A stretch of DNA of 64,000 nucleotides from a virus (Duplodnaviria; Heunggongvirae; Uroviricota; Caudoviricetes): the IMG/VR virus record IMGVR_UViG_3300043466_001354. One strand, given 5' to 3'. Both the position numbers and the translations under genes were made by a program. Of the stretch, positions 17,755-59,381 are shown in pieces; the stretch's first letter is position 1; each line of letters starts with the position of its first letter. The notes beneath the pieces were generated by a model. It worked only from the letters and a program-made list of their open reading frames with translations. It ran no database searches and was not told the DNA's origin.

Positions 17755-17790
17755 TCTGTAGACCTTTCAGTTTGTGTTCCTTACATTATT

Positions 17791-17819
17791 AGAATACACT
17801 GATTCTAAACGAATGTCAA
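17791..17819 (-). promoter_or_regulatory. Early sigma70-like promoter cassette (-35 TTGACA, 17-bp spacer, -10 TATTCT)
   Basis: Copy of the about 50-bp repeat tccttacattattagaatacactgattctaaacgaatgtcaacc, immediately upstream of 16798..17754. Confidence 0.6.
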
Positions 17820-17835
17820 CCATTAAATGAAAAAA

Positions 17836-18135
17836 TTAGTGCATAGTTGTAGAAGTCATAGGAATGAAATCAATCATCTTATGAGTATACTTTCCATAAC
17901 CATTCTTCACTAGGTATACGACACTAACGTATTCGTCTTTCGTGTCGACCGGAATTACTTTCCAGACTCCACGATCTCGTCCGAGAAAATCGTCGATGTA
18001 TAGATTCGCTTCATCCTCGGTATCAAATGCGATTGCCTTTGAGAGACCTATGACATCATTCTTAGCAAAGATTCCATACTTCTGGAACGCGCCCAGAAAG
18101 AAACCTAGATCTTCTTCTGCAATCGCGTATCTCAT
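17836..18135 (-). CDS. Hypothetical protein
   Basis: 99-aa ORF. Confidence 0.35.
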   Translation of the reverse strand: MRYAIAEEDLGFFLGAFQKYGIFAKNDVIGLSKAIAFDTEDEANLYIDDFLGRDRGVWKVIPVDTKDEYVSVVYLVKNGYGKYTHKMIDFIPMTSTTMH

Positions 18136-18692
18136 TAAGCTGCTACTTTAAACCACTCAGGGATATCACGTTTAGTCCACACCATTTTGAACCTTGCTTG
18201 TTTCGTCTGATAGAACTCTCGATAAGAACGAACAGGATCGTTAGGGAACATGCACTCAGGATTAGCTTTCATTGCGAGCGGCTGCTGAGTTAGATATCCG
18301 ATAGGAATGTTTCGTGGTAGTTCCTTCAGCTTTTCGCGAAGAAGTTTGTCAGTCGAATGAACCTTGCCATAACGATAGGTGTACTCGTCGCAGAGAGCAG
18401 CGAAGTGAACCCAGTGCCAAGTGTAGTTGTTATTCGACTGAGTAGTCCATACGGTACAAGGGTGCGCCATGTGAACTGCTTTGTATAGAATATGTTCGCG
18501 CTCATCAGGAAGAGTCCAATGCTTTGACATCGTCTTACCCGACTTCGATGGCGCACGTTTAAGAACACCATCAAGCATACGATGCGCAGTCGACAACATC
18601 TGTGCCGACTCCACGATCATTTTGACTACGTGCTTATCACACTGCAGTTGCGCTGCGACAACTGGGTCTTTATCCAAAATAAAAAGATTCAT
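18135..18692 (-). CDS. Hypothetical protein
   Basis: 185-aa ORF rich in W/H/C; no recognised motif. Confidence 0.4.
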   Translation of the reverse strand: MNLFILDKDPVVAAQLQCDKHVVKMIVESAQMLSTAHRMLDGVLKRAPSKSGKTMSKHWTLPDEREHILYKAVHMAHPCTVWTTQSNNNYTWHWVHFAALCDEYTYRYGKVHSTDKLLREKLKELPRNIPIGYLTQQPLAMKANPECMFPNDPVRSYREFYQTKQARFKMVWTKRDIPEWFKVAA

Positions 18693-18905
18693 GATGATTT
18701 ATCCAAAAAGATGCATTCCTGACAAGAACCAGGCAATGAGAATGAACCCCATCCGCCCAGTGAAATAATGCTTACGTATTTTCATTCTACGCTGAAAGTC
18801 ACTTACTGTAAACTGAAAAATGCTGTCCAATAGCGCAATGAAGATAAAAAAGATCCAACAACAAATGCGATCCATGCAACAATAGTCGTGAACATAGGAT
18901 TTCCT

Positions 18906-19680: not shown

Positions 19681-19709
19681 AGGAGGTTCCTTTCGTTCCT
19701 TACATTATT

Positions 19710-19738
19710 AGAATACACTGATTCTAAACGAATGTCAA
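19710..19738 (-). promoter_or_regulatory. Early promoter cassette copy (TTGACA-17-TATTCT)
   Basis: Near-identical repeat (19688-19739). Confidence 0.6.
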
Positions 19739-19745
19739 CTACTTT

Positions 19746-19976: not shown

Positions 19977-20003
19977 GGTGTATCCTTTCGTTTGATATAG
20001 AAC

Positions 20004-20032
20004 AGTCTATACTGATTCTGAACGAATGTCAA
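20004..20032 (-). promoter_or_regulatory. Early promoter cassette, diverged copy (TTGACA-17-TAGACT)
   Basis: Same gattctgaacgaatgtcaacc core. Confidence 0.5.
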
Positions 20033-20700
20033 CCGTTTTCATGAAGAAGTTTGTACTTTTTTCGAACCTTTAAGAACTCTGGCAAGTAATCGTATGTGTT
20101 GACTTTAAAGACTTGTGGCTCTGAGTCGTCAACCATTATGACTATGGCAGCTTGCTTGATAGGTATGCCAGTCATCTCGTAGAAAGCAGCCGCATAGAAC
20201 GCAGCCTGAATGAAATACCCAAGGATCCATTCCTTCTTCTTTTCTTTTCTTGATGTTTTGAAATCTATGATAGAGAGTTCGCCGTCGAACTCGGCTATAC
20301 AGTCAGTCTGACCTGCGCACTTTAGGCTATCGCTGTATAGAAAGGTTTCTTGGAACCATACATTGTTTACTCTTTCATCAAGTATCTTTTTGATCTGATT
20401 GAACGAGAATAGGTTCCCCGGCATATGATCTTTTTGCCATTCTGGTTCGTTATTGAGATAGTCCTCGGCTAGCTTGTGTACTGCGGTACCTCGCCCTGCG
20501 GCTTGTTTAGAGATACGGTTCGCTTCTTCTTCGCCGACTCTCTTACGCCATTCGATTAGGCCATCTTTGTCCATAACAGACAAAACCGTCGTGATTGACG
20601 GATACGCATTGCCTTCTGGCGTATAATACTTTCTTCCACTTTCGGTAGTCTTCCTAGTGATAACAGGAAGCACCAACCCATGATCTACGTGTTGAAACAT
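20029..20700 (-). CDS. PD-(D/E)xK-type nuclease-like protein
   Basis: D...E...IIDFKTS-like arrangement reminiscent of the RecB/Cas4-like nuclease core; weak. Confidence 0.35.
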   Translation of the reverse strand: MFQHVDHGLVLPVITRKTTESGRKYYTPEGNAYPSITTVLSVMDKDGLIEWRKRVGEEEANRISKQAAGRGTAVHKLAEDYLNNEPEWQKDHMPGNLFSFNQIKKILDERVNNVWFQETFLYSDSLKCAGQTDCIAEFDGELSIIDFKTSRKEKKKEWILGYFIQAAFYAAAFYEMTGIPIKQAAIVIMVDDSEPQVFKVNTYDYLPEFLKVRKKYKLLHENG

Positions 20701-24184: not shown

Positions 24185-24226
24185 GTTGTATGTGTTTCTC
24201 TTATATTTGGATCTTATGAGTCTATA

Positions 24227-24568
24227 CTACTCTAGTAATTCACCAATGTCAATCATTTCTTTGTCGATTTCTTCATTTTCTATAAATTCATCTGCAAAGT
24301 CTTGCAGAGGATGATATATGTCGCTTGCCATTAAATGAAGCGAGCGAATTGATTCGAGAAGAAGAATGATGGACGGGTAGTACCTTTCGGTGTCTTGTTC
24401 GAACCTGCACCCAGACCTTACCATCTCGATAAGAACAAGGTTCCAAAGACTTTCTGCGACGTCGTTCGAAAAACTCGTTCTGTATTCCGTAAGTTTTTCG
24501 GATAACTCTTCGAGTGATTGTGGTGGTGAGTCGAGTTTCATTCGAGGGAATTTTATGATTTCAGCCAT
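24227..24568 (-). CDS. Hypothetical protein
   Basis: 113-aa acidic ORF. Confidence 0.4.
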   Translation of the reverse strand: MAEIIKFPRMKLDSPPQSLEELSEKLTEYRTSFSNDVAESLWNLVLIEMVRSGCRFEQDTERYYPSIILLLESIRSLHLMASDIYHPLQDFADEFIENEEIDKEMIDIGELLE

Positions 24569-27127: not shown

Positions 27128-27677
27128 TTTCTTTTTCCTTTATGAAGCCTAGCTTTGCGATATAGTAGGAATCAACAATGTCCGAAACCGGATTCCATTG
27201 ATTCTTATTTAATATATCCAATTCTACGCGAATGTCAACCATTGTTTCTTCAAAAAAGCTTTCATACATCTTTTCTTTGTTTGCGTTTCCCTTCGTGGTA
27301 GCAAACTTTTTGATCTCGGGTGGCGCAAACACTTGAAAGGGAATCTTGTCTTTCCAAAGACGATACTTTAGTTGGCCGGTGTTCTCTGCTATCTGAAAGA
27401 CTCGGCCGACAGCATTGAAGGCGTATCCTTCAATGAAGCACTTAGTTACGTTGTTTGATGTGAGAGTCTTGAGTGACCACTTTGAGAGGTTATCGTATCG
27501 ATGCGCGTCGCAAAGATACTCTTGATACATCTCTCCATAGAACTGCCCAGAGACAACGACTGATTTCTCTCGATGTACGACATAGTAGAAACGGCAGTTT
27601 TTCACGTTCCATTCATCGCCCTCGTGAACGCATATAGCGGGGCTCGTCAAACTATAATCAATACCAGCAACTATCAT
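27111..27677 (-). CDS. Hypothetical protein
   Basis: 188-aa ORF; contains an internal promoter-like TTGACA-16-TATATT at 27211-27238. Confidence 0.45.
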   Translation of the reverse strand: MIVAGIDYSLTSPAICVHEGDEWNVKNCRFYYVVHREKSVVVSGQFYGEMYQEYLCDAHRYDNLSKWSLKTLTSNNVTKCFIEGYAFNAVGRVFQIAENTGQLKYRLWKDKIPFQVFAPPEIKKFATTKGNANKEKMYESFFEETMVDIRVELDILNKNQWNPVSDIVDSYYIAKLGFIKEKENVDQA

Positions 27678-27713: not shown

Positions 27714-28649
27714 CTACTTATGATATGAAGTGTACCAATCAACGAATGAAGCAACACCTTCTTCGATATTGACTGAAGGTTGATAACCATACTTTACAAG
27801 TTTTGATACGTCAGACTGAGTCTCAAGACAATCGCCTGCTTGGTGTTCGATATACTCAATATCAGCTTTCTTTCCAGTCGCCGTTTCGATTGCTTCTACG
27901 AAACGTTTAAGAGTGACTTGCTGAGTGTTACCTATGTTAAAGATCTCGTTCGAAGGAATACTGTCGTTTTCCATCACTATCTGAACACCTTTCACGATAT
28001 CATCAATGTACGTGAAATCGCGCTTCATGTTTCCATAGTTATACAGCTTTATCTTTTCACGATTGAGAATGTTCTTTGTGAAGTCATAGAGAGCCATGTC
28101 GGGTCTACCCCAAGGTCCATATACTGTGAAGAAACGAAGACCGATGTCGTTCAGGCCAGACATCTTAAACTGGCATTCATTAACAAACTTAGTGTATCCA
28201 TACGGACTTATCTGATGAAGAACCGGTTCGTCTTCTCTCCATGGAAGTTGTTCGATTCCAGCGCAGACGCTAGAAGTAGATGCATAGACGACTTTTTCTA
28301 TGCCGTTTTCTTTGCACGCATCAATAACGTTTTGAGTTCCGTCTATGTTTACCTTATGGTAGATACCAGGGTTCTTCATAGAATATCTTACACCCGCCAT
28401 CGCTGCTAGGTGTACAACAATGTCTGGCTTCGCACTCTTAATAAAGCGAGATAGAGCTTCTTTATGAATGATATCTACTAGGTGTACTGGAGGCAAGCGA
28501 AAATGCTTAACTCTATCCACCTTAAGTGTAGCTGGATAGTAATCACAATAGTTGTCAATACCAATTATCTCGTAACCGCAATCGCGAAGACGAGCGGATA
28601 GTGAAGCTCCAATAAATCCTGCTGCACCAGTTACAAGAACTCTTTTCAT
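27714..28649 (-). CDS. NAD-dependent sugar-nucleotide epimerase/dehydratase (UDP-glucuronate or UDP-glucose 4-epimerase-like SDR)
   Basis: GAAGFIG Rossmann motif, catalytic YGYTK (YxxxK) and extended-SDR length. Confidence 0.8.
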   Translation of the reverse strand: MKRVLVTGAAGFIGASLSARLRDCGYEIIGIDNYCDYYPATLKVDRVKHFRLPPVHLVDIIHKEALSRFIKSAKPDIVVHLAAMAGVRYSMKNPGIYHKVNIDGTQNVIDACKENGIEKVVYASTSSVCAGIEQLPWREDEPVLHQISPYGYTKFVNECQFKMSGLNDIGLRFFTVYGPWGRPDMALYDFTKNILNREKIKLYNYGNMKRDFTYIDDIVKGVQIVMENDSIPSNEIFNIGNTQQVTLKRFVEAIETATGKKADIEYIEHQAGDCLETQSDVSKLVKYGYQPSVNIEEGVASFVDWYTSYHK

Positions 28650-29473
28650 TTAAAAAATAAACCTTCTTCGAAGTCTTTATAAATTAGTTTTTTAGATGCG
28701 CCTTCATAATGAATAAAGCTTGGAGACACCTCAATCATTTCCGATCCACTTCTAAAGAATGGCTTTTCGCTAAATTTTCTGCGATAGTTATACTTTCTTC
28801 CGATATGGAATGGAAGTAGAGTATATAAGTTCACAATGTAGTGAAAGAAATTTTCATCTGAAGCTGTTTTGTTCTTTAGATAAATTACGTTTTCAGAATG
28901 CTTTTCTTCCCAATGCTCCCACCATTTGCCCTTTGAAAATTTCTCAAGTATATGAGTTTCAGATGGAGTTCCTCTGCATGGATAGTTACCAGAAAATATA
29001 TCCATGTTATATAGTTTTCCATGTCCGTTCTTTAAATTTCTATTTGTGTTATTAAACAGTATGACACCAGAATTTATCTTTCCGAGCGAGCTGCTATCCC
29101 TATGAATATATCTATCAGCGACATTATCAAAGTAACCGACGAGTCCGCTATGCATAAATTCTTCAAAGATGTTATCGGCATTTTGGTGTATGATCACGTC
29201 GGTGTCTACGTATAGAACCTGATCGTAATCCTTTAGATGTTGAACTGCTCTATACTTATCAAAGGTCTCAACGCCAAATGCCCAAGGTTTATATTCCTCT
29301 TCACTTAGGAACTCAAACTTATAGTCGATACCATATCTCTCACAGTATGCTTTTGCAAAAGTTGTGCTATGTTTCCAGTATTCTCCAACCGAAACTCGAT
29401 CAAAGCTTTCGCCGAAAACATTCTTACTTCTATCTTTAAAGTCGACGTGAAACTGGTACAGTAATCTCTTCAA
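28646..29473 (-). CDS. Glycosyltransferase family 8-like
   Basis: DTD (DxD) and NSGVILFN resemble GT8 LgtC/glycogenin motifs. Confidence 0.45.
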   Translation of the reverse strand: MKRLLYQFHVDFKDRSKNVFGESFDRVSVGEYWKHSTTFAKAYCERYGIDYKFEFLSEEEYKPWAFGVETFDKYRAVQHLKDYDQVLYVDTDVIIHQNADNIFEEFMHSGLVGYFDNVADRYIHRDSSSLGKINSGVILFNNTNRNLKNGHGKLYNMDIFSGNYPCRGTPSETHILEKFSKGKWWEHWEEKHSENVIYLKNKTASDENFFHYIVNLYTLLPFHIGRKYNYRRKFSEKPFFRSGSEMIEVSPSFIHYEGASKKLIYKDFEEGLFFK

Positions 29474-30075: not shown

Positions 30076-30087
30076 ATGATATTTACT

Positions 30088-30116
30088 AGAGTATACTGAT
30101 TCTATCAGAATGTCAA
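30088..30116 (-). promoter_or_regulatory. Early promoter cassette, diverged copy (TTGACA-17-TACTCT)
   Basis: tactgattctatcagaatgtcaact core. Confidence 0.5.
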
Positions 30117-30117
30117 C

Positions 30118-30369
30118 TCAAAAAGCTGACTGGCCGTAATTTCCTAGTGTATCTTCGATCTCTTTTACGAATTCCGAGTATCCTCCGATGTGTCTCTCAT
30201 CCCACCAGATCTGCGGAACCGTCTTTACTTCTGGATAACGTTCAAACATTTCATCGCGGTTATCTGTAAACCCGGTATTCTTGTATTCGTACTTTAAGTC
30301 GTATTGCTCGGCGATCTTTTTTGCTTCTTGGCACCAGTGGCAGTTGTCCTTACCGTATATTGTAATCAT
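30118..30369 (-). CDS. nrdC: Glutaredoxin (NrdC-like)
   Basis: 83 aa with CHWC active site and thioredoxin-fold hallmarks (TVPQIW..GG). Confidence 0.8.
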   Translation of the reverse strand: MITIYGKDNCHWCQEAKKIAEQYDLKYEYKNTGFTDNRDEMFERYPEVKTVPQIWWDERHIGGYSEFVKEIEDTLGNYGQSAF

Positions 30370-33360: not shown

Positions 33361-33391
33361 TGGTCAGTTTCCTTTCGTTCCTTACATTATT

Positions 33392-33420
33392 AGAATACAC
33401 TGATTCTAAACGAATGTAAA
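33392..33420 (-). promoter_or_regulatory. Early promoter cassette (TTTACA-17-TATTCT) with an upstream GGAAAGTGCACT extension
   Basis: About 68 bp that is 97% identical to the copy at 35779-35847. Confidence 0.6.
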
Positions 33421-33446
33421 TAGGAAAGTGCACTGACCACGATTTT

Positions 33447-35772: not shown

Positions 35773-35801
35773 CGGATGTTCCTTTCGTTCCTTACATTAT
35801 T

Positions 35802-35830
35802 AGAATATACTGATTCTAAATGAATGTAAA
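35802..35830 (-). promoter_or_regulatory. Early promoter cassette (TTTACA-17-TATTCT)
   Basis: Near-identical to the 33369-33437 copy. Confidence 0.6.
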
Positions 35831-35853
35831 TAGGAAAGTGCACTCTTTTTCAT

Positions 35854-36978: not shown

Positions 36979-37009
36979 AACGATTCTCCGAATTGGTTCA
37001 TACTTGTTC

Positions 37010-37038: not shown

Positions 37039-37039
37039 C

Positions 37040-39874: not shown

Positions 39875-39884
39875 GGTTTATCCT

Positions 39885-40892: not shown

Positions 40893-41616
40893 AATGCACT
40901 ATCTCCCATCTTCCATCAAAGTGTTCTACCAGAGCGGTGGCACTCTCGACCCAGTCGCCATCGTTCATGTATATAACACCATTTATTTCTTTTATTTCAG
41001 CATGATGAATGTGACCACAAATTATTCCGTCATATCCATGTTGCTTACAATAGGCAGCTAGATGTTCTTCGTAACGATTGATAAAGTTTAACGCGTGTTT
41101 AGTATTCTGTTTTAGATATTTACTTAAACTCCAATAGTCCATACCAAACAAACTTCTTACTCGATTAAACTGAACATTGGCATATATCATAGCGTCATAC
41201 AAAGTATCTCCAATGTGCATCAACCATTTTTTATCATGCATCAATACGTCAAAGAAGTCACCATGAATAACCAGATAACGTTTGCCGTCTAAACCTATGT
41301 AGTCTTGTCTGTTAGTTACTTTAATATTACCGAAGCTGATATCAAAGTTTAAAAACTTACGGCCTGCTTCATCGTGATTACCTAATATGTATTCTACTCT
41401 AGTGCCACGCTTAGCTGCCGTGAGTATTCTGCGTATCACATTGGCATGACTCTGTGGAAAGTACCAACGTTTCTTTAAGCGCCAACCATCCAGCATATCA
41501 CCAACTAGGAATAGGTTTTCGCTTGTGTTGTTTTTTAAGAAAACACAGAGGGCGTCTGCTTGACACCCTCTGGTTCCTAAATGCACATCACTTATGAAGA
41601 TGCTTTTATATTTCAT
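40846..41616 (-). CDS. Calcineurin-like metallophosphoesterase (PlcP/LpxH-like)
   Basis: Metallophosphoesterase motifs DVHLG, GDMLDGW, GNHD, HGD, GHIHH; 256 aa; overlaps the GT4 start by 47 nt. Confidence 0.65.
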   Translation of the reverse strand: MKYKSIFISDVHLGTRGCQADALCVFLKNNTSENLFLVGDMLDGWRLKKRWYFPQSHANVIRRILTAAKRGTRVEYILGNHDEAGRKFLNFDISFGNIKVTNRQDYIGLDGKRYLVIHGDFFDVLMHDKKWLMHIGDTLYDAMIYANVQFNRVRSLFGMDYWSLSKYLKQNTKHALNFINRYEEHLAAYCKQHGYDGIICGHIHHAEIKEINGVIYMNDGDWVESATALVEHFDGRWEIVHYAEDLNSYRQLTESD

Positions 41617-41618
41617 TC

Positions 41619-42584
41619 TTATTTAAGAGCAGAAACTTCAGCCTGAGTAGCTGCAAGTTCTGGATCTGGAACCAATCCATACTGTGCAAGAGCGCCATCA
41701 GGACCTGCCATCTCATCACTCACGAAGAACTCGATGTATTCCTTCAGACCAGGAATGACGCTGAGGTGAGCGTTCTTCACGTAGAAGTAAAGTGGACGGC
41801 TGATTGGATAGTCACCGCTTGAGATGGTTTCTACGCTTGGTGCCACGCCACTTACCGTGGCAACTTCTAGTTTATCAGTGTTGTTCTGATAGAAGCTAAG
41901 ACCAAACACACCTAGCGATGTTTTATTAGCATCAAGACGAGCAAGTGTTTCTGTGTAGTCGCCATCGATGTCAACTGCTGCACCGTCAGTTCTTACTTTC
42001 ACACAAGCTTTCTTTTGATCGTCATCGAGTTTCTCAACACCGAGAGCTGCTTTACAACCTTCTTCCATCACCTTTACATCGAACACTTCACGAGTGCCGT
42101 GTTTGGTACCTGGAATGTATGCAAGGATTGCTACTTCTGGAAGAGTCGAGTCGACTTCACTCCAGAGTTTTGCAGTGCTCGACTCGTGTAGAGCGCTATA
42201 GAGTTGTTCGACTGTTAGATTATCGATATTAAGTTGATCGATGTTCGATGCAAACACGATACCGTCATAACCAATACGAACCTCAGTCACTTCACCAATT
42301 GCTTCTTCACACTTGGCTCTTTCTTCATCCTTCATCTTTGAAGAACTATTTGCGATGTCAACAGTGTTTTCACCAACACCTTCGCAGAGCTTCTTACGGC
42401 CTGCACCCGAACCACCACCTTCAACTACTGGCGACGGAAAATCAAAATTTTCACCAAATGCCTCTGCGACAATGGTTGCATATGGTAGTACTGTAGACGA
42501 TCCTGTTACTTGAACGTTATCTCTTGCAAACGCAGTCGTGGACGCCAAAGCAATAATTGCCGCCGCTGATAGTAAAGCTTTCAT
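41619..42584 (-). CDS. pstS: Phosphate ABC transporter substrate-binding protein PstS
   Basis: Signal peptide plus TGSSTVLP, GGGSGAG, FGLSFY, YPISRPLYFYV PstS hallmarks. Confidence 0.9.
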   Translation of the reverse strand: MKALLSAAAIIALASTTAFARDNVQVTGSSTVLPYATIVAEAFGENFDFPSPVVEGGGSGAGRKKLCEGVGENTVDIANSSSKMKDEERAKCEEAIGEVTEVRIGYDGIVFASNIDQLNIDNLTVEQLYSALHESSTAKLWSEVDSTLPEVAILAYIPGTKHGTREVFDVKVMEEGCKAALGVEKLDDDQKKACVKVRTDGAAVDIDGDYTETLARLDANKTSLGVFGLSFYQNNTDKLEVATVSGVAPSVETISSGDYPISRPLYFYVKNAHLSVIPGLKEYIEFFVSDEMAGPDGALAQYGLVPDPELAATQAEVSALK

Positions 42585-43347: not shown

Positions 43348-43530
43348 TTATCCCTCGTATTTTTCTTTTAGTCGAGCAAGTTCGGCTCGTTCTTTACGTT
43401 CTTTGTCTTTACGCAGCCATCTGATATAGATATCTTGGTCGTATGTACAATCCTTATTGCAGCATTCCCAACCGATAGGACCACAATCGGTGAGTGGCTG
43501 TTTACACCCTTCACATACTAACTCAGTCAT
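43348..43530 (-). CDS. Zinc-ribbon small protein
   Basis: CxxC...CC..C cysteine pattern. Confidence 0.4.
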   Translation of the reverse strand: MTELVCEGCKQPLTDCGPIGWECCNKDCTYDQDIYIRWLRKDKERKERAELARLKEKYEG

Positions 43531-44051
43531 TCGATTACCTCGTTTGGAAACTGTTCTGTTGGTACAAAAACATACTCAGGCTTTTCTGGTTGTGTCCACG
43601 GAAACTCAATAAACACTCGGCTTTCACGACCCGTATAGTAGCTCTTATATGGTTTACCTTCGTCAATATCTGGCGATGAATACCATTCCCAAAACACTCG
43701 ACCATCCATCCAGTATGGTCGCCCATCTTCATCCTTAAAGACAGAACTGTTACGTTTGTTCTGCCACATATCTGCGCTGACTTCCGTCCACTCGTCAGAT
43801 TCGCCAGTCAAAGGAGCAATAGGTTTCCATGATGCGAGCTTCTCAAACAAAGCTACTGCATACGGTGCCGACATACCGCTGTGTCCTTGTTCTGAGAACA
43901 CTTTGAGAAGCTCAAGCGTTCCTTCTGCAAGCCAACGGTTTGGTCCATCTTCTGGATCATTAATATCATATCCAGCCAGTTTAAGTTCGGCTTCCGCCCA
44001 TTTCAACATGTTGCTCATTTGCTTTCCTCTATTAGATTTTTCAAGCGCCAC
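43527..44051 (-). CDS. Hypothetical protein
   Basis: 174-aa ORF. Confidence 0.45.
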   Translation of the reverse strand: MALEKSNRGKQMSNMLKWAEAELKLAGYDINDPEDGPNRWLAEGTLELLKVFSEQGHSGMSAPYAVALFEKLASWKPIAPLTGESDEWTEVSADMWQNKRNSSVFKDEDGRPYWMDGRVFWEWYSSPDIDEGKPYKSYYTGRESRVFIEFPWTQPEKPEYVFVPTEQFPNEVIE

Positions 44052-48095: not shown

Positions 48096-48124
48096 GATAG
48101 GTTCCTCTCGTTCCTTATAGAATC

Positions 48125-48153
48125 AGTATAAACCATTTCGCAACGAATGTAAA
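48125..48153 (-). promoter_or_regulatory. Early promoter cassette, diverged copy (TTTACA-17-TATACT)
   Basis: Shares the acgaatgtaaa and ttcctt leader core. Confidence 0.5.
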
Positions 48154-48160
48154 CAACTTT

Positions 48161-50339: not shown

Positions 50340-50369
50340 ATAATATCACACAACTAAAGGGTTGTAAAT
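50340..50369 (-). promoter_or_regulatory. Early promoter TTTACA-18-TATTAT upstream of dda
   Basis: Shares the CTATTTACA -35 context with the cassette family. Confidence 0.45.
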
Positions 50370-50621: not shown

Positions 50622-51173
50622 ATGAAAATAACCATGATTTTATTTATATTAACATTCTTAACTGCTTGCACGAATCCTGAATATCTTGCTAAACGTGAAG
50701 AAAAGCTTGCAAAAGAAAATAGTGAAAAGGTGGTTTACTATGCTAGTAACTACGTAGGCATGCATGAGGTAACAGACAGAAAGCAACTAAAGAGTCTAAT
50801 GGGTATGGATCCATCACGTTTCGAGTGGTGCGCCGCCTTCGTAAATTCAATTCTATCCACAAAGGGTATACCAGGATCCGAGTCAGTCAGTAATCATCCT
50901 CTCGTGGCAAAAAGCTTTTTAAAGTGGGGTGAAGAAGTTACTGAGAGTCCTCGACCTGGAGATGTAGTCGTGTTTCCGAGAGGAAGGCAACAGTGGCAAG
51001 GACACGTCGGATTCTTTGTTACTTCCTATGTCGACGAAGGAAAGATGTACTATGTTATTCTTGGTGGAAATCAAGGAAACGAAGTAAGCTACAAGGTATA
51101 TGAAGCAAGAAAGGCCATCTCCGTTAGAAGATGGCCTACAGATGTGAACACAACAGTTATGACTATGAACTAG
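50622..51173 (+). CDS. Secreted lipoprotein with an NlpC/P60-CHAP-like (TIGR02594-type) peptidoglycan hydrolase domain
   Basis: Lipobox LTAC; conserved Cys (EWCAAFVN) and His (GHVGFF) plus GDVVVF; the only plus-strand gene inside the minus-strand block. Confidence 0.55.
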   Translation: MKITMILFILTFLTACTNPEYLAKREEKLAKENSEKVVYYASNYVGMHEVTDRKQLKSLMGMDPSRFEWCAAFVNSILSTKGIPGSESVSNHPLVAKSFLKWGEEVTESPRPGDVVVFPRGRQQWQGHVGFFVTSYVDEGKMYYVILGGNQGNEVSYKVYEARKAISVRRWPTDVNTTVMTMN

Positions 51174-51520
51174 GTCAGCTGCGGATATTTGCCAACAGCG
51201 ACGAAGCCAAAGGTATCGCAGACGAAGCAATCACCGCTATCGTCGATGAAGATATCACCGACAGAACTGGAATAAGCACGGCCGATGCGCTTACCCTTGT
51301 AACGATCACCAATCCCATTCGAAACTTCGAACGCTTCGTCCAGGTCGGTAGTATCGATTTCCCAACCTTTGACGTAGTGCTTCAGATAAGCTTCAGAGAA
51401 CTTAGACTTATCAAAGCCGAACTGCATTCGGTTGCGAACCGTAAAAGCTTCAACCTCACGACCTGCGTTGATAGCGATGATCTGATCGTCGGTCAGTTGG
51501 ATCTGGTAGATGGTAATCAT
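51170..51520 (-). CDS. Hypothetical early protein
   Basis: 116-aa ORF downstream of a promoter cassette, with an AAGGAGG RBS. Confidence 0.5.
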   Translation of the reverse strand: MITIYQIQLTDDQIIAINAGREVEAFTVRNRMQFGFDKSKFSEAYLKHYVKGWEIDTTDLDEAFEVSNGIGDRYKGKRIGRAYSSSVGDIFIDDSGDCFVCDTFGFVAVGKYPQLT

Positions 51521-51549
51521 GGTGGCCTCCTTGCCATTCCTTATATTAT

Positions 51550-51578
51550 CAATCTACACTGATTCTAAACGAATGTAA
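51550..51578 (-). promoter_or_regulatory. Early promoter cassette (TTTACA-17-TAGATT)
   Basis: cactgattctaaacgaatgtaaatag core. Confidence 0.55.
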
Positions 51579-51589
51579 ATAGAAAAGTG

Positions 51590-53085: not shown

Positions 53086-53117
53086 TGTATTTATCCCTTA
53101 TCGGTTTCTGTAATACT

Positions 53118-53146
53118 ACAGTATACCGATTCGGGGACAATGTAAA
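53118..53146 (-). promoter_or_regulatory. Early promoter, diverged (TTTACA-17-TACTGT)
   Basis: Shares the CTATTTACATT -35 context. Confidence 0.4.
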
Positions 53147-53153
53147 TAGAAAA

Positions 53154-54809
53154 TTAGGCTTCGCAGGCTGCGCAGCTGCTTGCCATCACTCTTTTTCTAG
53201 TCAACGACTGCGCAGCAGACATCGAGTAGCTGTAGTAGAGACTCTTAACACCCATTTCATGCGCATATAGGTATAGTTGGTTTATTTCCTTCACGGACAT
53301 GTGAGGATCCAACATGAGGTTAAGGCTTTGCCCCTGATCTATATATTCTTGACGGACAGCCGCATGATCGATGATCGTGTATGGATTGATTTCTGCGAAC
53401 GTCTTGAATACATCCTTCTCTTCCTGAGACAAGAAGCTTAGGTGTTGAACGGAACCGTCTGCTATCTTAATGGAGTCCCAAACTTCTTCCGTGTCCATAC
53501 CTTTTTCCTGAAGCAGCTGAAGAAGATAAGGGTTCTTAATCGTAACCTTCATCTTTGCGAGATCCTTCACGTAGCAGTTAGAGAACTCTGGCTCGATGGA
53601 TTGACTTACTTGACCAAGGATGAACGAGCTGCTCTTTGTTGGAGCGATAGCCATCGTAGTCGTATTGCGCATTCCGTAACCAACAAGAAGAGGAGCCTCG
53701 CCAAACATTTCTGCGAGAACTTTAGAAGCTCTATGGCTCTGTTCACGAAGGACCTTTGCGATCTCAAGATTCTTTTGAGCGGCTTCTTTTGACTCAAATG
53801 CAATCATCTTTGACTGAAGATATGAATGCCATCCAAGTATTCCTACACCAAGTGCTCTGTGATTGATTGCGAACTGACGAGCTCTCTTGAGATATTCTTG
53901 GCCTTCAGTCTTACGAATGAACTCCTCGCATACTGTGTCGAGGAAATAAGTCATGACTTCGATCGCATCGGTCTTAATGATCTCATCCCAATGAAGAACG
54001 TTGATTGACGATAGAACGCAAGTAAAGGTTTCTTCTACGGAAGAAGGAAGCGCGATCTCAATACACATGTTCGATGCATGGATCTTGAGGTCTTTATCCT
54101 TATATACTTGAGGCTTGTTATTGTTAACATTATCTCCGAAGAGAACATATGGATAACCAATCTCAGAACGACGCTGAAGAACCTTTGCCCAAAGACGACG
54201 TTTTTCTGCGTCTCCATCCTTCATTGCCTGAATGAATTCGTTTGAAACAACAACACCGGTCGTTAGTCCCTGAATTGGATTTCCTTCCGTTCCGATGTCA
54301 AGAAACTCGTCTGCGTCTGGGTGATCGATGTCGTGATATGCAGCAAAGAAGCCACGACGAACAGAACCCTGAGATACGACTGAAGCCAACGAATCATATA
54401 GCTGCATAAAGTGCACAGAACCCGAAGACTCGCCCGAGTCACGAATAGGAGCACCACGATGACGTACTGCACCGAAGTAACCGGAAGTACCTCCGCCGTT
54501 CTTCATAAGCATTCCGTTCTCGGCGACACCGTATAGAATGGATTCCATGTTATCGTCGATGTAAGAACCAAAGCAGGATACTGGAAGTCCTCTTTCCTTA
54601 CCATAGTTTGCCCAGACTGGCGACGACAGAGAGTAGAAACCACGAGCCATGTAGTCATAGAACTTGTCAGCATATCCTGGCATGGTCAAATACTTTTCTG
54701 CAGTATCAGCAATCGCACGAATGCGTTCCTCAGGAGTTTCACCTTCGCTTAGATATCCGCGAGACAAAAACTTTCTTGAGTCATCGTTGAGCCAATAGAA
54801 TTTTTCCAT
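53154..54809 (-). CDS. nrdA: Ribonucleotide reductase large subunit NrdA (class I, no ATP-cone)
   Basis: Catalytic NxCxE motif SNMCIEI; Gly-rich effector regions; 551 aa with the N-terminal cone absent. Confidence 0.8.
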   Translation of the reverse strand: MEKFYWLNDDSRKFLSRGYLSEGETPEERIRAIADTAEKYLTMPGYADKFYDYMARGFYSLSSPVWANYGKERGLPVSCFGSYIDDNMESILYGVAENGMLMKNGGGTSGYFGAVRHRGAPIRDSGESSGSVHFMQLYDSLASVVSQGSVRRGFFAAYHDIDHPDADEFLDIGTEGNPIQGLTTGVVVSNEFIQAMKDGDAEKRRLWAKVLQRRSEIGYPYVLFGDNVNNNKPQVYKDKDLKIHASNMCIEIALPSSVEETFTCVLSSINVLHWDEIIKTDAIEVMTYFLDTVCEEFIRKTEGQEYLKRARQFAINHRALGVGILGWHSYLQSKMIAFESKEAAQKNLEIAKVLREQSHRASKVLAEMFGEAPLLVGYGMRNTTTMAIAPTKSSSFILGQVSQSIEPEFSNCYVKDLAKMKVTIKNPYLLQLLQEKGMDTEEVWDSIKIADGSVQHLSFLSQEEKDVFKTFAEINPYTIIDHAAVRQEYIDQGQSLNLMLDPHMSVKEINQLYLYAHEMGVKSLYYSYSMSAAQSLTRKRVMASSCAACEA

Positions 54810-56466: not shown

Positions 56467-57357
56467 TCACACTGCCATGTCCATTTTGATAGTTGAATGA
56501 TGAAAATAGTTTATAAGTTGAAACTTATTTACGTCGTCGAGTCTAAATCCGTTCTTAAGTCTATCCATGAGATCAAAGTCGGTGTCTATGTGTAGAGTAG
56601 GAAGAGGAAACTCTTCGCGAGTCAATTGTTCTCTTACTTGTTCGATATGGTTCGTATAGATATGTGCGTCTCCGATAGTATGAACAAAATCGCCAACGCC
56701 TAGATTACATTCTTTTGCTATGATATGAGTTAATAGAGAGTATGAAGCAATGTTAAATGGAATTCCGAGACCGGCGTCGCCGCTTCTCTGATACATCTGG
56801 CAACTCAACTTACCGTTAACGACCCGAAACTGCGTGAGTACGTGACAGGGCGGTAGGGCCATTTCGGAGGTCTGTAGAGGGTTCCATGCTGAAAGGATAA
56901 TTCTTCTTGAGTCAGGGTTGGTTTGTATCTGTCGGATAACATCCACGATCTGGTCGACTCCCCAGTCTCCACCCTTGATGTTGTTGAAGTTGCGCCACTG
57001 AGCTCCATAGACTGGGCCAAGCTCTTTGGTGAATTCATTGTTGATGTATCCAAGAGCCTTCCCTTGAGTGTCGGCATTGGCGGTCCAAATTGTAGATCTT
57101 CCGATAAGGTCGACGCGATGTTTGTTAAAAGTGAGTTCCGCCAAACGCCGTTCGTCTGTTCCACCTTCGAGGAACCAGAGTAGTTCTCCAACGACTGCTT
57201 TCCATGCGAGCTTTTTTGTCGTAACTGCAGGGAATCCGTCTTGTAAATTAAATCGCATTTGGTAACCGAATATGGATCTTGTCCCTGTTCCTGTCCTGTC
57301 ATTTACGTCCTCTCCGTACTCTAGGATATCTTCGAGTAATTTATGATACTGTTTCAT
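56467..57357 (-). CDS. td: Thymidylate synthase ThyA (T4 td-like)
   Basis: Classic ThyA blocks DRTGTGT.S.FG.Q.RF and LPPCH..F.F; 296 aa. Confidence 0.9.
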   Translation of the reverse strand: MKQYHKLLEDILEYGEDVNDRTGTGTRSIFGYQMRFNLQDGFPAVTTKKLAWKAVVGELLWFLEGGTDERRLAELTFNKHRVDLIGRSTIWTANADTQGKALGYINNEFTKELGPVYGAQWRNFNNIKGGDWGVDQIVDVIRQIQTNPDSRRIILSAWNPLQTSEMALPPCHVLTQFRVVNGKLSCQMYQRSGDAGLGIPFNIASYSLLTHIIAKECNLGVGDFVHTIGDAHIYTNHIEQVREQLTREEFPLPTLHIDTDFDLMDRLKNGFRLDDVNKFQLINYFHHSTIKMDMAV

Positions 57358-57863
57358 CTTTTAACCCACTTTGTAATAATTCCAAAACTTAAAACTTCTA
57401 CGCTACCCATATGAAACTGTTCCGTGATCTTTTGTTTAGGAAGGAATGTATCGCAATCATAAACACCGCCGACATCGTTTAACCAGAGTTCATCAATGAT
57501 TTCAAGACAACTCTCAACGAGCTGCGCACCACCGATGATCCAGATTTTAGAATGATCCGAGTATCGTTTCACAATCTTATCTTTAATTACTTCTACAATA
57601 TCATTGCCGCCATACGTACCATGATAGCCACGCGAAATATTATTCGAAGACGAGATAACGTAGTTGAGTCTATTAGGTAATGGCTTGACGTGTAGACTCT
57701 CCCAAGTCTTTCTACCCATCACAACGACACCACCGAGCGTCTTTTCTTTAAACCATTTAAGATCATCGCTATTCTTTGGCCAAGGAAGATCACCGTCCTT
57801 TCCAATTCCCCAAAAAGCATCGTGAGCTAAAATAGCATTTACATTCTTCATACTTTTCTCCAT
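57354..57863 (-). CDS. frd: Dihydrofolate reductase
   Basis: IGKDGDLPW, VVMGRKT..S and WIIGG motifs. Confidence 0.85.
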   Translation of the reverse strand: MEKSMKNVNAILAHDAFWGIGKDGDLPWPKNSDDLKWFKEKTLGGVVVMGRKTWESLHVKPLPNRLNYVISSSNNISRGYHGTYGGNDIVEVIKDKIVKRYSDHSKIWIIGGAQLVESCLEIIDELWLNDVGGVYDCDTFLPKQKITEQFHMGSVEVLSFGIITKWVKR

Positions 57864-58855
57864 GATGCTAACTTAAGTGTCGCTTGAAGACCCTTATAAG
57901 TGTTTTCTCGAATGACTTCTTCAACGTTTGATATACCGTTTAGAACCATTTCATTTATATCCTTGCCAGGCACGCTAGAGGGCCATACGCACACTCGATA
58001 ACCGGCGTTGATGAGCCTCTCAATCCTTTTATGGATCTCTTTATTCCGAGGCTCAGCATCGAATACAAAGATCGCGTTGTCAGCTCTTTTCAGACCACTT
58101 ACGTTTCCGTCAGCACCTGCCATTGCAACAGCGTTTGAAAGAAACATACAGTCGAGAGCACCTTCAACTACGAAGTATGTCTGTTCAAAATTTACAGTGT
58201 CGAGGCCAAAGATCTTAGAACGTTCTTCAAACATAATGGTAATGTATCTTACGCCGTTCGGATCAAAACCACGAGCCGACACACCAAACATCTTTCCGTT
58301 CTCATCAAAGAATGGAATTACGAGACGAGGTTCGTCTTTGCCTACGTTCTCAAACTTATTTGGAATAATGCTATTGATCCAAGTTTTAAACTTTGGGGCA
58401 AAATACATTCGATAGTGGTGCTGTGGTGGAATTCCTCTTTTCATTACGTACTTTTTAAGAGGATGATCCGTGGATAGTTGACTCACCTTCTTAAGTTGTT
58501 TAAGAGGGTCAACATTGAACACAGGCTTTTCAAATTTTGTTTTTTCTAAGATGGACGCATCGGACTTCTTCGCGTCCTTCACAAACTTTTCTGCGATGTA
58601 ATCATTATATGCCATACCGTCAATACTCTTGAGAAAGTACGAGAACGATTGGCTTGCGCCGCAGTTATGGCAGTAGAAGTGGAAGCTGTTATCTTTTTCG
58701 AGCAGCCAGCCTCGTGCCTTCGTCTTTGACGTCTGAGAGTCGCCGCAGACAGGGCACCTGAAGTTTATCTTATACGGATTCGTCGACCGAACTTTAAACC
58801 GATCCAATCGGCTCGAAAGCATAGTCGCGTATTGGAGATCTACAAAATCTACCAC
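57848..58855 (-). CDS. 61: DNA primase (T4 gp61-like; zinc-binding plus TOPRIM domains)
   Basis: N-terminal CPVCGD...H..C..C zinc ribbon; TOPRIM region EGALD ... FDAEPRN; GTG start with a GAGG RBS. Confidence 0.7.
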   Translation of the reverse strand: MVDFVDLQYATMLSSRLDRFKVRSTNPYKINFRCPVCGDSQTSKTKARGWLLEKDNSFHFYCHNCGASQSFSYFLKSIDGMAYNDYIAEKFVKDAKKSDASILEKTKFEKPVFNVDPLKQLKKVSQLSTDHPLKKYVMKRGIPPQHHYRMYFAPKFKTWINSIIPNKFENVGKDEPRLVIPFFDENGKMFGVSARGFDPNGVRYITIMFEERSKIFGLDTVNFEQTYFVVEGALDCMFLSNAVAMAGADGNVSGLKRADNAIFVFDAEPRNKEIHKRIERLINAGYRVCVWPSSVPGKDINEMVLNGISNVEEVIRENTYKGLQATLKLASWRKV

Positions 58856-58889
58856 GTTGCCTCACATTAGTTGCATGATATTGAATTAC

Positions 58890-58917
58890 AATATATTCCA
58901 TATATCCCAAATGTCAA
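58890..58917 (-). promoter_or_regulatory. Early promoter TTGACA-16-TATATT upstream of primase
   Basis: aaatgtcaacc core shared with the cassette family. Confidence 0.4.
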
Positions 58918-59381
58918 CCAAAAAGTGACATCAGGGATTCATATCTGTCAAAGAGGAAGATCAAGACCGCGGCTGCACCGAGGATCCACCATCTCCAGTT
59001 TTCAAGGGCTTGTATTCTTGCATCCTGAGTCTCAAGTTTTGCAGTTATGACCGTATGCATATTCTGTATTGACTCTAATACTTCTTTGTGACGACGTTCT
59101 CTTTGTATCTGAGCGTCCTCTCTCATGTCGGCGATTACTTTGCTGAGTTCTTTACGATGCTCAGCCTCATCATCGGCATGTTTAATAAAGGTATCTTCTA
59201 GGTTTTCAATTCTTCTTTCAGCGTTCTCAAGAATCTTCTCTTGAACCGCAGCTATCTTATGTAGCTCGGCCATGTCACCAACTGCGTGGTCGACTTTATT
59301 AAATACTCTCTCTATCTGTTTAATGTCTTTTTTGATAAGAGCGACATCTGTCTTTAGAACGTTTACTTCGGTGTCAGTCAT
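58914..59381 (-). CDS. Coiled-coil protein with a C-terminal TM anchor (possible lysis regulator or holin-like)
   Basis: Long heptad-repeat region then WRWWILGAAAVLIFLF; preceded by TATAAATA plus a hairpin. Confidence 0.35.
   Translation of the reverse strand: MTDTEVNVLKTDVALIKKDIKQIERVFNKVDHAVGDMAELHKIAAVQEKILENAERRIENLEDTFIKHADDEAEHRKELSKVIADMREDAQIQRERRHKEVLESIQNMHTVITAKLETQDARIQALENWRWWILGAAAVLIFLFDRYESLMSLFG

Follow-up and report, generated by a model that had tools for sequence, protein, structure and literature searches.

Background

T4 early promoters are strong promoters for the host polymerase, present in dozens per genome; they share sequence beyond the hexamers and all lie on the early-gene strand. 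Promoter-early stem-loop (PeSL) cassettes have been described from the T4-type phage pairs RB49/phi1, T4/PST, and KVP40/nt-1 (Arbiol et al. 2010, PMC2839356; Comeau et al. 2014, PMC4122927); their stem-loop may sit between or over the promoter boxes, and recombination patches of <50 bp have been discussed for T4-type phages (PMC2839356). A further comparison is offered by alphaproteobacterial sigma70 promoters that depend on GcrA/CcrM (Haakonsen et al. 2015, PMC4647560): Caulobacter GcrA stimulates open-complex formation and prefers TGATTCG, more broadly YGAKTCK (Y=C/T, K=G/T), and at its direct targets the site is "narrowly centered around -20" or lies at +2 to +30 (PMC4647560).

Here, we analyse a repeated promoter-like cassette in a 64-kb stretch of viral DNA (the whole stretch analysed, hereafter the window). 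Its source, an uncultured freshwater myovirus, is classed as T4-like by the matches of its terminase, sheath, portal, capsid, NrdAB, Dda, ligase, RnlA, and primase proteins. The closest cultured orthologue of its DUF932 protein (54%) is found in Sinorhizobium phages, the nearest PstS homologue from a cultured phage is that of a Pelagibacter phage, the capsid protein (64-68%) is about equally close to Sinorhizobium, Synechococcus, Stenotrophomonas, and Methylophilales phages, and an epimerase search for a host clue gave no taxonomic signal. The genes behind the cassettes are for the most part small and lacking in known relatives, and lie in the early minus-strand region.

Results

A cassette family in the window

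Family members were called with a profile built from the copies (nhmmer), which found nine strong members in the window, all on the minus strand (E from 2e-16 to 3e-10; -35 starts at 17819, 19738, 20032, 30116, 33420, 35830, 48153, 51579, and 53146), and two decayed copies:

17755-17828, minus, cassette 1: TTGACA 17819-17814, spacer block AGAATCAGT, TATTCT 17796-17791, leader, DUF932 ATG 17754; E=8e-14
19681-19743, minus, cassette 2 (casA): TTGACA 19738, TATTCT, leader TAAGGAACGAAAGGAAC, ATG 19680; E=1e-15
19977-20037, minus, cassette 3 (casB): TTGACA 20032, TAGACT, ATG 19976; E=1e-10
30076-30123, minus, cassette 4: TTGACA 30116, TACTCT, ATG 30075; E=3e-10
33362-33437, minus, cassette 5: upstream block AGTGCACTTTCCTA, TTTACA 33420, TATTCT, ATG 33361; E=2e-16
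35773-35847, minus, cassette 6, near-twin of cassette 5: TTTACA 35830, ATG 35772; E=3e-15
48096-48160, minus, cassette 7: TTTACA 48153, spacer without the block, which is inverted (TATACTGATTCT) over and after the -10 box, ATG 48095; E=7e-12
51521-51588, minus, cassette 8: TTTACA 51579, TAGATT, ATG 51520; E=3e-13
53086-53155, minus, cassette 9, the most diverged: TTTACA 53146, spacer ttgtccccGAATCGGT, TACTGT, ATG 53085; E=2e-10
39962-39992, minus, decayed copy: TTGACC-N8-AGAATCAGT, within the 3' end of glycosyltransferase gene 39885-40892 and ~90 nt upstream of gene 39116-39874; E=1.6
27211-27241, minus, decayed in-gene copy: TTGACATTCGCGTAGAATTGGA-TATATT, GAATT for GAATC, 16-nt spacer; E=0.009

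The unit runs from TTGACA or TTTACA through a 17-nt spacer and a TAnnnT box to a ~25-nt leader with a strong ribosome-binding site and the ATG, with a purine start predicted 7 nt past the -10 box, and all nine copies lie on the gene strand directly upstream of start codons. The shared core comprises the -35 box and the spacer (~23-26 nt), while the -10 box and leader go with the downstream gene.

The original prediction, of at least 12 near-identical early-promoter cassettes, was partly confirmed, as the repeat is real and its description overstated. The quoted 45-mer is exact at 17777-17821 on the minus strand and recurs with one mismatch at 19696-19740 and three at 33378-33422, where shuffles expect none; the 17-nt spacer is invariant in 9/9 strong members, the sigma70-type geometry, leading into a ribosome-binding site and ATG, is apparent in all nine, and a cassette precedes each of the nine genes listed (one start, given as 33360, is 33361). 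Near-identity extends to four copies (17819, 19738, 33420, and 35830), nine being clear members in all. The -10 box, described as TATTCT-like, takes that form in some members and in others is TAGACT, TACTCT, TATACT, TAGATT, or TACTGT. The twins at 33420 and 35830 share a stretch from AGTGCACTTTCC to AAAGGAA at an identity of ~64/66 rather than 66/68, and the in-gene copy placed at 27211-27238 exists in the decayed form listed above. Diverged copies had also been placed before ligase, dda, primase, and the gene at 39052; these we rejected as members, their similarity to the family being limited to sigma70-like hexamers:

36997-37066, minus, pre-ligase site: terminator hairpin 37041-37066, then directly GTTTACA-N17-TATACA; non-member
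50340-50368, minus, pre-dda site: TTTACA-N17-TATTAT, generic sigma70-like, without the spacer block
58890-58917, minus, pre-primase site: TTGACA-N16-TATATT, generic promoter-like, without the spacer block
39079-39107, minus, site before gene 38774-39052: TTGACA-N17-TATATC, generic promoter-like

The pre-ligase site is the region's only terminator plus promoter, i.e., the classical PeSL layout. Gene 38774-39052 has a family cassette in front of it in relatives and the generic site here.

Spread among relatives and module shuffling

The core pattern occurs at 60 IMG/VR loci of related freshwater T4-like phages (136 instances, 75-80 unique sequences). At some of these the cassette is the only nucleotide-level similarity to the window, and the cassette-only loci sampled come from elsewhere in T4-like genomes (DNA polymerase, gp46/47-like nuclease, helicase, and topoisomerase). 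Its presence at 60 loci, including directly upstream of a topoisomerase gene in a relative, suggests that the cassette is the clade's early-promoter consensus, and thus would be a general early promoter rather than a dedicated shuffling element.

Modules were found permuted, replaced, and relocated, in keeping with the PeSL model. The window has the order C, casB, B, casA, A, and the cassette 2 and 3 modules change places in relatives (C, casA, A, casB, B), with the homology switch of this A/B swap falling within the 26-nt core; in other relatives these two cores flank another gene, and the module of cassette 9 with its gene (start 53085) lies before nrdA in the window and before the DUF932 gene in two relatives (L022 and L039). 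Non-colinear junctions comprised 17/23 of those with a cassette versus 40/88 of those without (Fisher p=0.019, odds ratio 3.4); a second measure, HSP ends per junction, differed about 2-fold (1.22 versus 0.60) with a permutation p of 0.10. The enrichment is therefore modest, with ~2/3 of breakpoints at ordinary junctions without a cassette, and it is the A/B swap and the replaced-gene cases alone that place a break inside the core; gene-borne promoters would also adjoin variable content without recombination inside the cassette. The cassette thus appears to mark some points of small-gene swapping between relatives. In addition, the window's DUF932 leader equals its paralogues over -10 to +15, where a 95%-identical orthologue differs at four sites, an apparent gene-conversion tract.

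An invariant block in the spacer

The 3' half of the spacer holds an invariant 9-bp block, AGAATCAGT, at -22 to -14. The main set of instances was gathered by a pattern that contains the block, so its near-invariance there is partly built in; we therefore give weight to a bias-free sample, small (n=34 unique), of promoters gathered via the DUF932 protein. GAATC occupies the same spacer position in 13/34 of these, and the first seven spacer bases of those 13 promoters diverge (tatcgtg, aatagac, ttccaat, and others). The position of AGAATCAGT is fixed among DUF932 orthologues as far apart as 68% protein identity, whose neighbouring spacer bases are fully diverged, and the block is also kept where paralogues differ in the rest of the spacer. 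Seventy-one unique copies have it at positions 13-24; four lack it in the spacer, and three of these four have it inverted as TATACTGATTCT just after the -10 box, at positions 23-34, with GATTC at -6 to -2. Its flanks vary little among 80 unique copies (position 13 A69/C8/T3; position 19 A72/G7/C1), and the -10 box is TATAAT in 0/75 family members versus ~7/21 block-free orthologous promoters. Taken together, the constancy of the block points to selection beyond shared descent alone, and it is most likely where a sequence-specific protein binds.

Discussion

The cassettes are PeSL-like in their repeated sigma70-like early promoters with N17, a partly A/T-rich upstream flank, ribosome-binding site, and start codon, in their clustering among small genes of unknown function in a variable early region, and in the insertions, replacements, and permutations between relatives whose ends fall within or at the element; members with TTTACA have the T4/PST form of the -35 box. 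They differ from PeSL in that they fail on the stem-loop, having neither a conserved one nor a terminator, in that their homology covers ~23-26 nt (-35 box and spacer, with a gene-specific -10 box and leader) rather than the ~100 bp conserved in PeSL, and in a -10 box that is never consensus; moreover, the clade is uncultured and distant from all published pairs. Unexpected relative to the published PeSL descriptions is the invariant 9-bp spacer block between the promoter boxes, which has no counterpart there. With the T4 early class they share sequence outside the hexamers and confinement to one gene strand, whereas the extra element is the 9-mer in the spacer's 3' half, not an A-tract farther upstream or an extended -10 of the TGn type; clades related to this one have extras of their own (aaataatttcaaattcc upstream of TTGAC in Sinorhizobium phage phiM19, TTGACttttgtt in Melnitz and marine relatives).

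Several other readings of the block deserve consideration. It may be one of two half-sites at which a dimeric phage regulator binds its operator, the regulator being probably an early shut-off repressor, which we consider unlikely but the most plausible of these; the 22-bp dyad, AGAATCAGT-N4-ACTGATTCT, would be centred on the first -10 bases. The block is indeed found facing both ways around a single fixed axis (71 versus 3 unique copies), and the right side matches the inverted half-site at 3.65/8 versus 2.31 +/- 0.54 when permuted (P=0.008) and 2.89 in block-free control promoters, with no other register as high; yet this second half-site is weak and owes part of its match to the -10 box and the A/T-rich start region, a distance of 15 bp between the GAATC and GATTC centres puts them on opposite helix faces, no regulator gene was identified, and covariation is absent from both dyad registers (values as observed were reached in 156/500 and 500/500 shuffle trials). 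The original prediction had instead suggested, as one possibility, an operator at the palindrome TTAGAAT-N6-ATTCTAA, which pairs at 73% versus 32-48% in slid registers, but is perfect in just four window copies, of the TATTCT subclass, and does not hold as a family feature; its operator is not supported, whereas a different, weak dyad may lie around the same block. Binding by a GcrA-type sigma70 cofactor from a host among the alphaproteobacteria, which would sense methylation at the block and help polymerase open weak -10 boxes, is possible but unsupported, and we rate it very improbable. GAATC is a GANTC adenine-methylation site (opposite strand TGATTCT), lies at -21 to -17 from the inferred start, near the -20 centre, and fits YGAKTCK (opposite-strand flanks give K in 77/80 and Y in 79/80 copies), the -10 boxes are never consensus and would gain from open-complex help, and the DUF932 and PstS affinities fit such a host. 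This match, however, emerged after looking for any known motif, no CcrM-like or GcrA-like gene turned up among the window's 46 larger proteins or across 467 kb of related loci, GANTC and YGAKTCK show no avoidance and also occur outside promoters, the 9-bp block exceeds the 7-bp motif, inverted copies place GATTC outside both GcrA windows, and phiM19, which is T4-like and whose host is known to be an alphaproteobacterium, lacks the feature in general (spacer GANTC in just 1/6 early-type promoters). Functionless similarity outside the hexamers, left from recent duplication and gene conversion, seems improbable as a full account: TTCGTTT, the first seven spacer bases, is uniform among paralogues in the window's subclade and variable in more distant phages, so part of the similarity is concerted evolution, in keeping with the apparent conversion tract in the DUF932 leader, but the block persists where neighbouring bases have diverged and where paralogous spacers otherwise differ.

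Two further readings concern the shuffling. Full PeSL cassettes, whose internal palindrome would form a stem-loop that terminates or attenuates read-through or serves as a structured recombination site, are scarcely probable. Although the published stem-loop may likewise sit between or over promoter boxes, and the whole units at 35830 (z=-3.3), 51579 (z=-3.7), and 53146 (z=-4.2) fold better than shuffles, the family shows no folding excess (mean z=-0.46 over 75 unique copies versus -0.94 in block-free control promoters), the stems are A/T-rich (-4 to -11 kcal/mol) and without a U-tract or compensatory change, a terminator scan found no terminator-like hairpin adjoining any cassette, and the hairpin, lying upstream of the inferred start, would be absent from the cassette's own transcript. 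Least probable is a dedicated site-specific recombinase that targets the core in integron-type gene cassettes bringing their own promoter; module boundaries that coincide sharply with the 23-26 nt core across several independent arrangements of a single locus, and core conservation beyond promoter needs, would suit it, but the window showed neither an integrase nor a recombinase, just a PD-(D/E)XK exonuclease of a type common among T4-like phages, an identity of 23-26 nt may suffice for the T4 recombination system, most breakpoints lie away from cassettes, and a cassette also stands in front of a stable core gene.

Conclusions

On the repeat anatomy, distribution among relatives, module shuffling, and block conservation observed here, we favor, at a rough probability of 0.75, the joint reading that the cassettes are the clade's early promoters, that their core acts as a recombination patch, and that the 9-bp block is a protein site under selection; the original interpretation is thereby partly upheld, in its promoter geometry and shuffling and not in its stem-loop or named operator. 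Sequence features are our basis for inferring promoter activity, timing, start site, and the kind of factor involved. Host RNA polymerase would fire the cassettes right after infection, driving accessory genes that are small for the most part and, in relatives, core replication genes too. Since copies of the core lie in direct orientation at intervals of a few hundred to a few thousand bases, the core would act as a homology patch, with which the phage recombination system may swap, replace, and move promoter-plus-gene modules, and which may also let sequence be copied from one cassette into another, much as PeSL cassettes have been described to behave. The putative protein at the block would act on all early promoters together, the candidates being an activator, supplied by the host or brought in with the virion, or a phage repressor that shuts the early promoters off; if it were a GcrA-type cofactor, early phage transcription would depend on how the injected DNA is methylated.

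Genome setting of the phage

The window comes from a T4-like myovirus, with the genes for terminase, tail sheath, portal, and major capsid protein on the plus strand at 1-15.2 kb; from ~15.3 kb on, the minus strand carries nearly all genes, including those for RNA ligase, DNA ligase, Dda, NrdA/NrdB, thymidylate synthase, DHFR, and primase. Its GC content is ~42%, and megablast with 20 kb of the window recovered no close deposited phage at the nucleotide level. The capsid protein is ~64-68% identical to those of T4-like phages of Sinorhizobium, Stenotrophomonas, Methylophilales, and Synechococcus, and an identical capsid protein occurs on the 217,861-bp JGI contig Ga0335052_0000004 and many further metagenome contigs, hence we regard the phage as abundant and uncultured. 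Membership in the pelagimyophage clade was set aside, as the published description concerns a different clade with 30-35% GC. The recently acquired epimerase gene was uninformative about the host, with 39-46% identity across many phyla in a scan of genome contigs. A PstS/SphX-type phosphate-binding protein (41619-42584, minus strand) has its best phage homologues in a metagenomic "Acinetobacter" phage (47%) and Pelagibacter phage Mosig (41%), with no cyanophage among the PstS matches; as host clues, these homologues are suggestive only. Rfam and tRNA scans of the window gave no matches. The minus-strand gene list was curated by hand, in place of crude automatic calls with spurious plus-strand ORFs.

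Among the other genes of the window, one in the variable early region (43527-44051, minus strand) is a candidate for anti-defence, as its product hits the Pfam family Tad3 (type I Thoeris inhibitor; E=7e-39). Inside the minus-strand early block, a CHAP-domain gene at 50622-51173, possibly for a lysin, runs on the plus strand. A terminator-like hairpin occupies 51112-51137, just downstream of gene 51170-51520. A second sugar island (39116-41616) holds UDP-glucose dehydrogenase-like and glycosyltransferase genes. Toward the right end, a TCTTCG/TCTTCA repeat run (60252-60338) gives an Asp/Glu-rich stretch in a 68-codon gene (60246-60452, minus strand), and direct repeats of ~186-201 nt with 66-76% identity (63409-63836) lie inside gene 63110-63973, whose protein therefore has internal repeats. 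Past that end, an NCBI contig of the same phage (L221, 1-5938) carries aminotransferase, epimerase, and glycosyltransferase family 8 genes, two family 29 (sialyltransferase-like) genes, and a gene for an 822-aa DUF5824 protein.

Nine early-promoter cassettes in the window

A 45-mer cited in the original prediction as the repeated promoter element is present exactly at 17777-17821 (minus strand) and recurs with one and with three mismatches, where 0 recurrences are expected by chance. A profile built from the copies identified nine strong members, all on the minus strand.

Starts of the -35 boxes of the nine cassettes (window positions, profile search)
17819, minus strand, -35 of cassette 1
19738, minus strand, -35 of cassette 2
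20032, minus strand, -35 of cassette 3
30116, minus strand, -35 of cassette 4
33420, minus strand, -35 of cassette 5
35830, minus strand, -35 of cassette 6
48153, minus strand, -35 of cassette 7
51579, minus strand, -35 of cassette 8
53146, minus strand, -35 of cassette 9

All nine read TT[GT]ACA-N17-TAnnnT and then run through a leader containing a ribosome-binding site to the ATG of the downstream gene; the gene starts listed in the original prediction do follow the cassettes, although one was off by 1 base (33361, not 33360). Near-identity through the leader is confined to four copies; the remaining five have other -10 boxes and leaders. Two more copies, both decayed, fall within genes (27211-27241 and 39962-39992). 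The promoter-like sites of ligase, dda, primase, and gene 39052, proposed as diverged copies, have only hexamers in common with the family. A count of at least 12 near-identical cassettes was therefore too generous. Eight of the nine downstream genes encode 61-119 aa, seven of these eight without a PHROG match, and the ninth encodes a 318-aa DUF932 protein. A non-family promoter-like site at 24218-24252 (minus strand) reads TTGACA-N17-TAGTAT with GACTC one base later, another GANTC right after a -10, as in cassette 7, which may be chance.

Distribution and anatomy of the cassette

Searching IMG/VR by the exact pattern of the -35-to-spacer core (23-26 nt, including a conserved 9-bp block) returned 60 loci, and the profile run on the window plus these loci yielded 136 instances, 75-80 of them unique. 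Identity to the window is 75-83% over several kb in many loci and 92-99% in a few, and several are detectably alike only in the ~50 nt of the cassette (88-96% identity). A sample of loci in which no nucleotide similarity to the window was detected beyond the cassette encodes DNA polymerase, a gp46/47-type nuclease, helicase, and topoisomerase II, and so represents other parts of T4-like genomes. In one related locus (L024), the cassette stands directly upstream of a topoisomerase gene. Because the cassette extends to this gene and to other parts of T4-like genomes, we take it as the clade's general early-type promoter, serving more than genes of unknown function. It was found in no cultured phage, and blastn of the cassette alone gave only chance matches in Staphylococcus phages.

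The part common to aligned copies is the -35 plus spacer, TTGACA TTCGTTT AGAATCAGT R, with the -35 being TTGACA in 96 and TTTACA in 40 of the 136 instances. The -10 box and leader track the downstream gene, such that orthologues in different phages keep their own and paralogous cassettes differ there. Not one of 75 unique copies has TATAAT as its -10, the boxes being TATTCT, TATATT, TAGATT, TATACT, and others. Aligned copies also conserve a T and then a purine 7 nt past the -10; this purine is likely the transcription start, in which case the spacer would not be transcribed from its own promoter. The upstream flank is A/T-biased at -9 to -5, with only a mild A excess farther up, and comes in two subtypes, aaaaagtnG before TTGACA and cTTTYCTA before TTTACA. 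Cassettes 5 and 6 have an extra upstream block in common, AGTGCACTTTCCTA (33421-33437 and 35831-35847), which contains a self-complementary 8-bp AGTGCACT.

A conserved spacer block

Since the main instance set was gathered with a block-containing pattern, a second sample was drawn via the DUF932 protein. Among 34 unique DUF932 upstream promoters with a recognisable TTGACA, 13 have GAATC at the same spacer position, nearly all reading AGAATC[AG]GT, and the first seven spacer bases of the block-bearing promoters are unrelated (tatcgtg, aatagac, tatcagg, ttccaat, ttagaat). On the DUF932 tree, most block-bearing promoters group in a single large clade; the others come from one small clade and an isolated locus. 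Additional cassettes of the same distant loci again vary in the 5' spacer and retain the block, thus the TTCGTTT uniformity of the window's subclade appears to reflect shared descent or homogenisation. Orthologous promoters that lack the block show a spacer pattern of their own (e.g., ttcgttcttaaacgata) and often the consensus TATAAT. The exact reverse complement of the block lies over and after the -10 (TATACTGATTCT) in three of the four unique copies that have no spacer block, including cassette 7. From these alignments, AGAATCAGT at -22 to -14 looks to be under selection. Known polymerase contacts do not explain an invariant 9-bp segment in the 3' half of the spacer; we read the block as a predicted protein recognition site.

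Comparisons of the block with familiar promoter signals were made by eye. An alternative -10 formed by TAGAAT in the spacer was rejected, its first T not being conserved in orthologues and its distance from the -35 being only 6 nt, as was an extended -10 or TRTG element, the block having GT, not TG, at -15/-14. MerR-type spacer binding was set aside for a spacer of the optimal 17 nt, and LexA and Fur boxes for loose resemblance only.

Palindrome and stem-loop

A perfect TTAGAAT-N6-ATTCTAA palindrome, described earlier as a property of the whole family, is present in just four copies. Across 74 unique copies, this inverted repeat is paired in 73% of cells versus 32-48% in slid registers; its two central pairs are broken in about half of the copies, and no covariation was detected in it, with shuffles of the 3' letters among sequences matching it in 156 of 500 cases. 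Hence the palindrome reflects the consensus, above all that of the TATTCT subclass, with no compensatory changes maintaining it. The best-stem statistic was 4.55 versus 3.9 for the null (8 of 500 reach it under the stricter common-permutation null), and folding of -35 to +10 gave a mean z of -0.46 over 75 unique copies versus -0.94 in block-free orthologous promoters, with a few window copies folding well (z -3 to -4); on these values, too weak for the purpose, a structural element was dropped. A terminator scan found no terminator-like hairpin adjoining any cassette, which together with the mean folding score and the lack of covariation speaks against a stem-loop as a feature of the cassette.

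The sole clear terminator-plus-promoter layout belongs to the non-family site before DNA ligase (36997-37066, minus strand), where a strong hairpin terminator, GAGCGC-TTCG-GCGCTC with a T-run (readable from either strand), is immediately followed by GTTTACA-N17-TATACA. In one related locus (L009), the ligase-site terminator directly borders a family cassette, and ~2 kb of unrelated sequence stands in place of the ligase.

Cassettes as junctions of gene exchange

Around cassettes 2 and 3, the window has the order C, cassette, B, cassette, A (genes labelled by letter), and one lineage of related loci (L003, L004, L006, L043) has C, cassette, A, cassette, B, with the flank upstream of A's cassette being that found before B's cassette in the window. 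The two nucleotide alignments spanning this A/B swap overlap in the 26-nt core only. Both cores are likewise kept in three loci with an unrelated gene in between (L018, L045, L048) and in one with a different downstream neighbour (L025). In the window and in L007, nrdA is preceded by cassette 9 with its 64-codon gene; in L022 and L039 this module sits between two cassettes, upstream of the DUF932 gene.

Counted as distinct gene adjacencies in related loci, events that are not independent, 17 of 23 cassette junctions are non-colinear with the window versus 40 of 88 others (odds ratio 3.4, p=0.019). Alignment ends within 25 nt of a cassette core number 1.22 per cassette; ordinary junctions have 0.60 each (permutation p=0.10). 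The region as a whole is highly plastic, and a cassette is absent from about two thirds of breakpoints. The association of the cassette with variable gene content is real but modest; the idea that PeSL-like (promoter-early stem-loop) cassette boundaries coincide with indel breakpoints is upheld by breaks in or at the core, but most breakpoints lie elsewhere.

The window's DUF932 leader equals that of three paralogues over -10 to +15, where a 95%-identical orthologue differs at four sites, and the rest of the leader is orthologous; this stretch is probably a gene-conversion tract. The otherwise colinear L009 is without two sugar-metabolism genes at 27714-29473 (an NAD-dependent epimerase/dehydratase gene and its downstream neighbour, 28646-29473), and its breakpoints are plain gene junctions with no cassettes.

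Candidate factors for the block

One candidate reading is that the block is a GANTC adenine-methylation site (opposite strand TGATTCT, centred at -19) read by a GcrA-type sigma70 cofactor. GcrA prefers YGAKTCK, has a target class "narrowly centered around -20", and aids open-complex formation (PMC4647560). The opposite strand of AGAATCA, TGATTCT, fits this preference, the flanking bases conform to Y and K in 77-79 of 80 unique copies, 71 of 75 unique copies have the site at -21 to -17 given the inferred start (purine 7 nt after the -10), and help with open-complex formation would suit the weak -10 boxes. However, the site falls at -6 to -2 in three inverted copies, outside the GcrA windows (-20 or +2 to +30), the block is longer than the GcrA motif, and epimerase, PstS, and capsid comparisons do not identify the host. 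Nor was a CcrM or GcrA gene found in a search covering the window, 64 kb of the ~218-kb genome, together with 467 kb of related loci: a GcrA N-terminal query and a DPPY/FxGxG motif scan had no match in the window or the 60 loci, and Pfam scans of 46 larger window proteins for GcrA- or CcrM-like genes found only a Methyltransf_24 domain (15293-15928). GANTC, found 253 times where Markov models predict 298-355, shows no strong avoidance and is not specific to promoters, and Sinorhizobium phage phiM19 has a spacer GANTC in just one of six early-type promoters, plus a different conserved upstream element. On balance, we consider a GcrA-type reader improbable; if it were true, this whole clade of abundant freshwater T4-like phages would drive its early genes via the host's epigenetic cell-cycle machinery, and early transcription would depend on the methylation state of the injected genome.

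A dimeric phage regulator acting on a weak dyad around the block is somewhat likelier, but we still hold it unlikely. The inverted block copies define a dyad axis at the first -10 bases, and the right side of ordinary copies matches the inverted half-site at 3.65 of 8 positions versus 2.31 when permuted (P=0.008; controls 2.89), but no covariation appears at the dyad register either.

The phiM19 promoters (L223, 151365-164315) have a long upstream element in common, aaataatttcaaattcc-TTGAC, to which the spacer is complementary in several promoters (AATTCCC...GGGAATT), a stem around the -35 being a PeSL-like layout.

Comparison with PeSLs and significance

The cassette resembles the PeSLs of T4-type phages (Arbiol et al. 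2010, PMC2839356; Comeau et al. 2014, PMC4122927) as a repeated early promoter doubling as portable homology. Four of six sequence-level PeSL features are present: sigma70-like boxes 17 nt apart (9/9 cassettes), a ribosome-binding site and start codon at the 3' end (leaders such as TAAGGAACGAAAGGAAC-N5-7-ATG), a hyperplastic location beside small unknown-function genes, yet with a topoisomerase gene also cassette-fronted in relatives, and insertion, deletion, or replacement ends at the element (the A/B swap, gene replacement, and relocated module). The A/T-rich upstream flank is partly there, and the stable stem-loop that terminates or attenuates transcription in PeSLs is missing. Two further marks of the published PeSLs are mini-circles formed when neighbouring elements recombine, and promoter and terminator activity in reporter fusions. 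The conserved spacer block and gene-specific -10 are the cassette's own, not described in the PeSL papers, and most of its interest is in the unexplained block.

Together, these results provide evidence, both independent and culture-free, that in T4-like phages repeated early promoters are junctions for exchange of promoter-plus-gene modules, in a clade far from the three phage pairs where PeSLs were described. They also narrow the PeSL model: the exchangeable homology is the -35 plus spacer only, a hairpin is not needed, and most rearrangements occur elsewhere. The block can be used for DNA-affinity capture of its factor, or as a pattern for annotating early genes in metagenomic phage contigs, and offers a handle on how T4-like phages without T4 AsiA/MotA coordinate or shut off early transcription.
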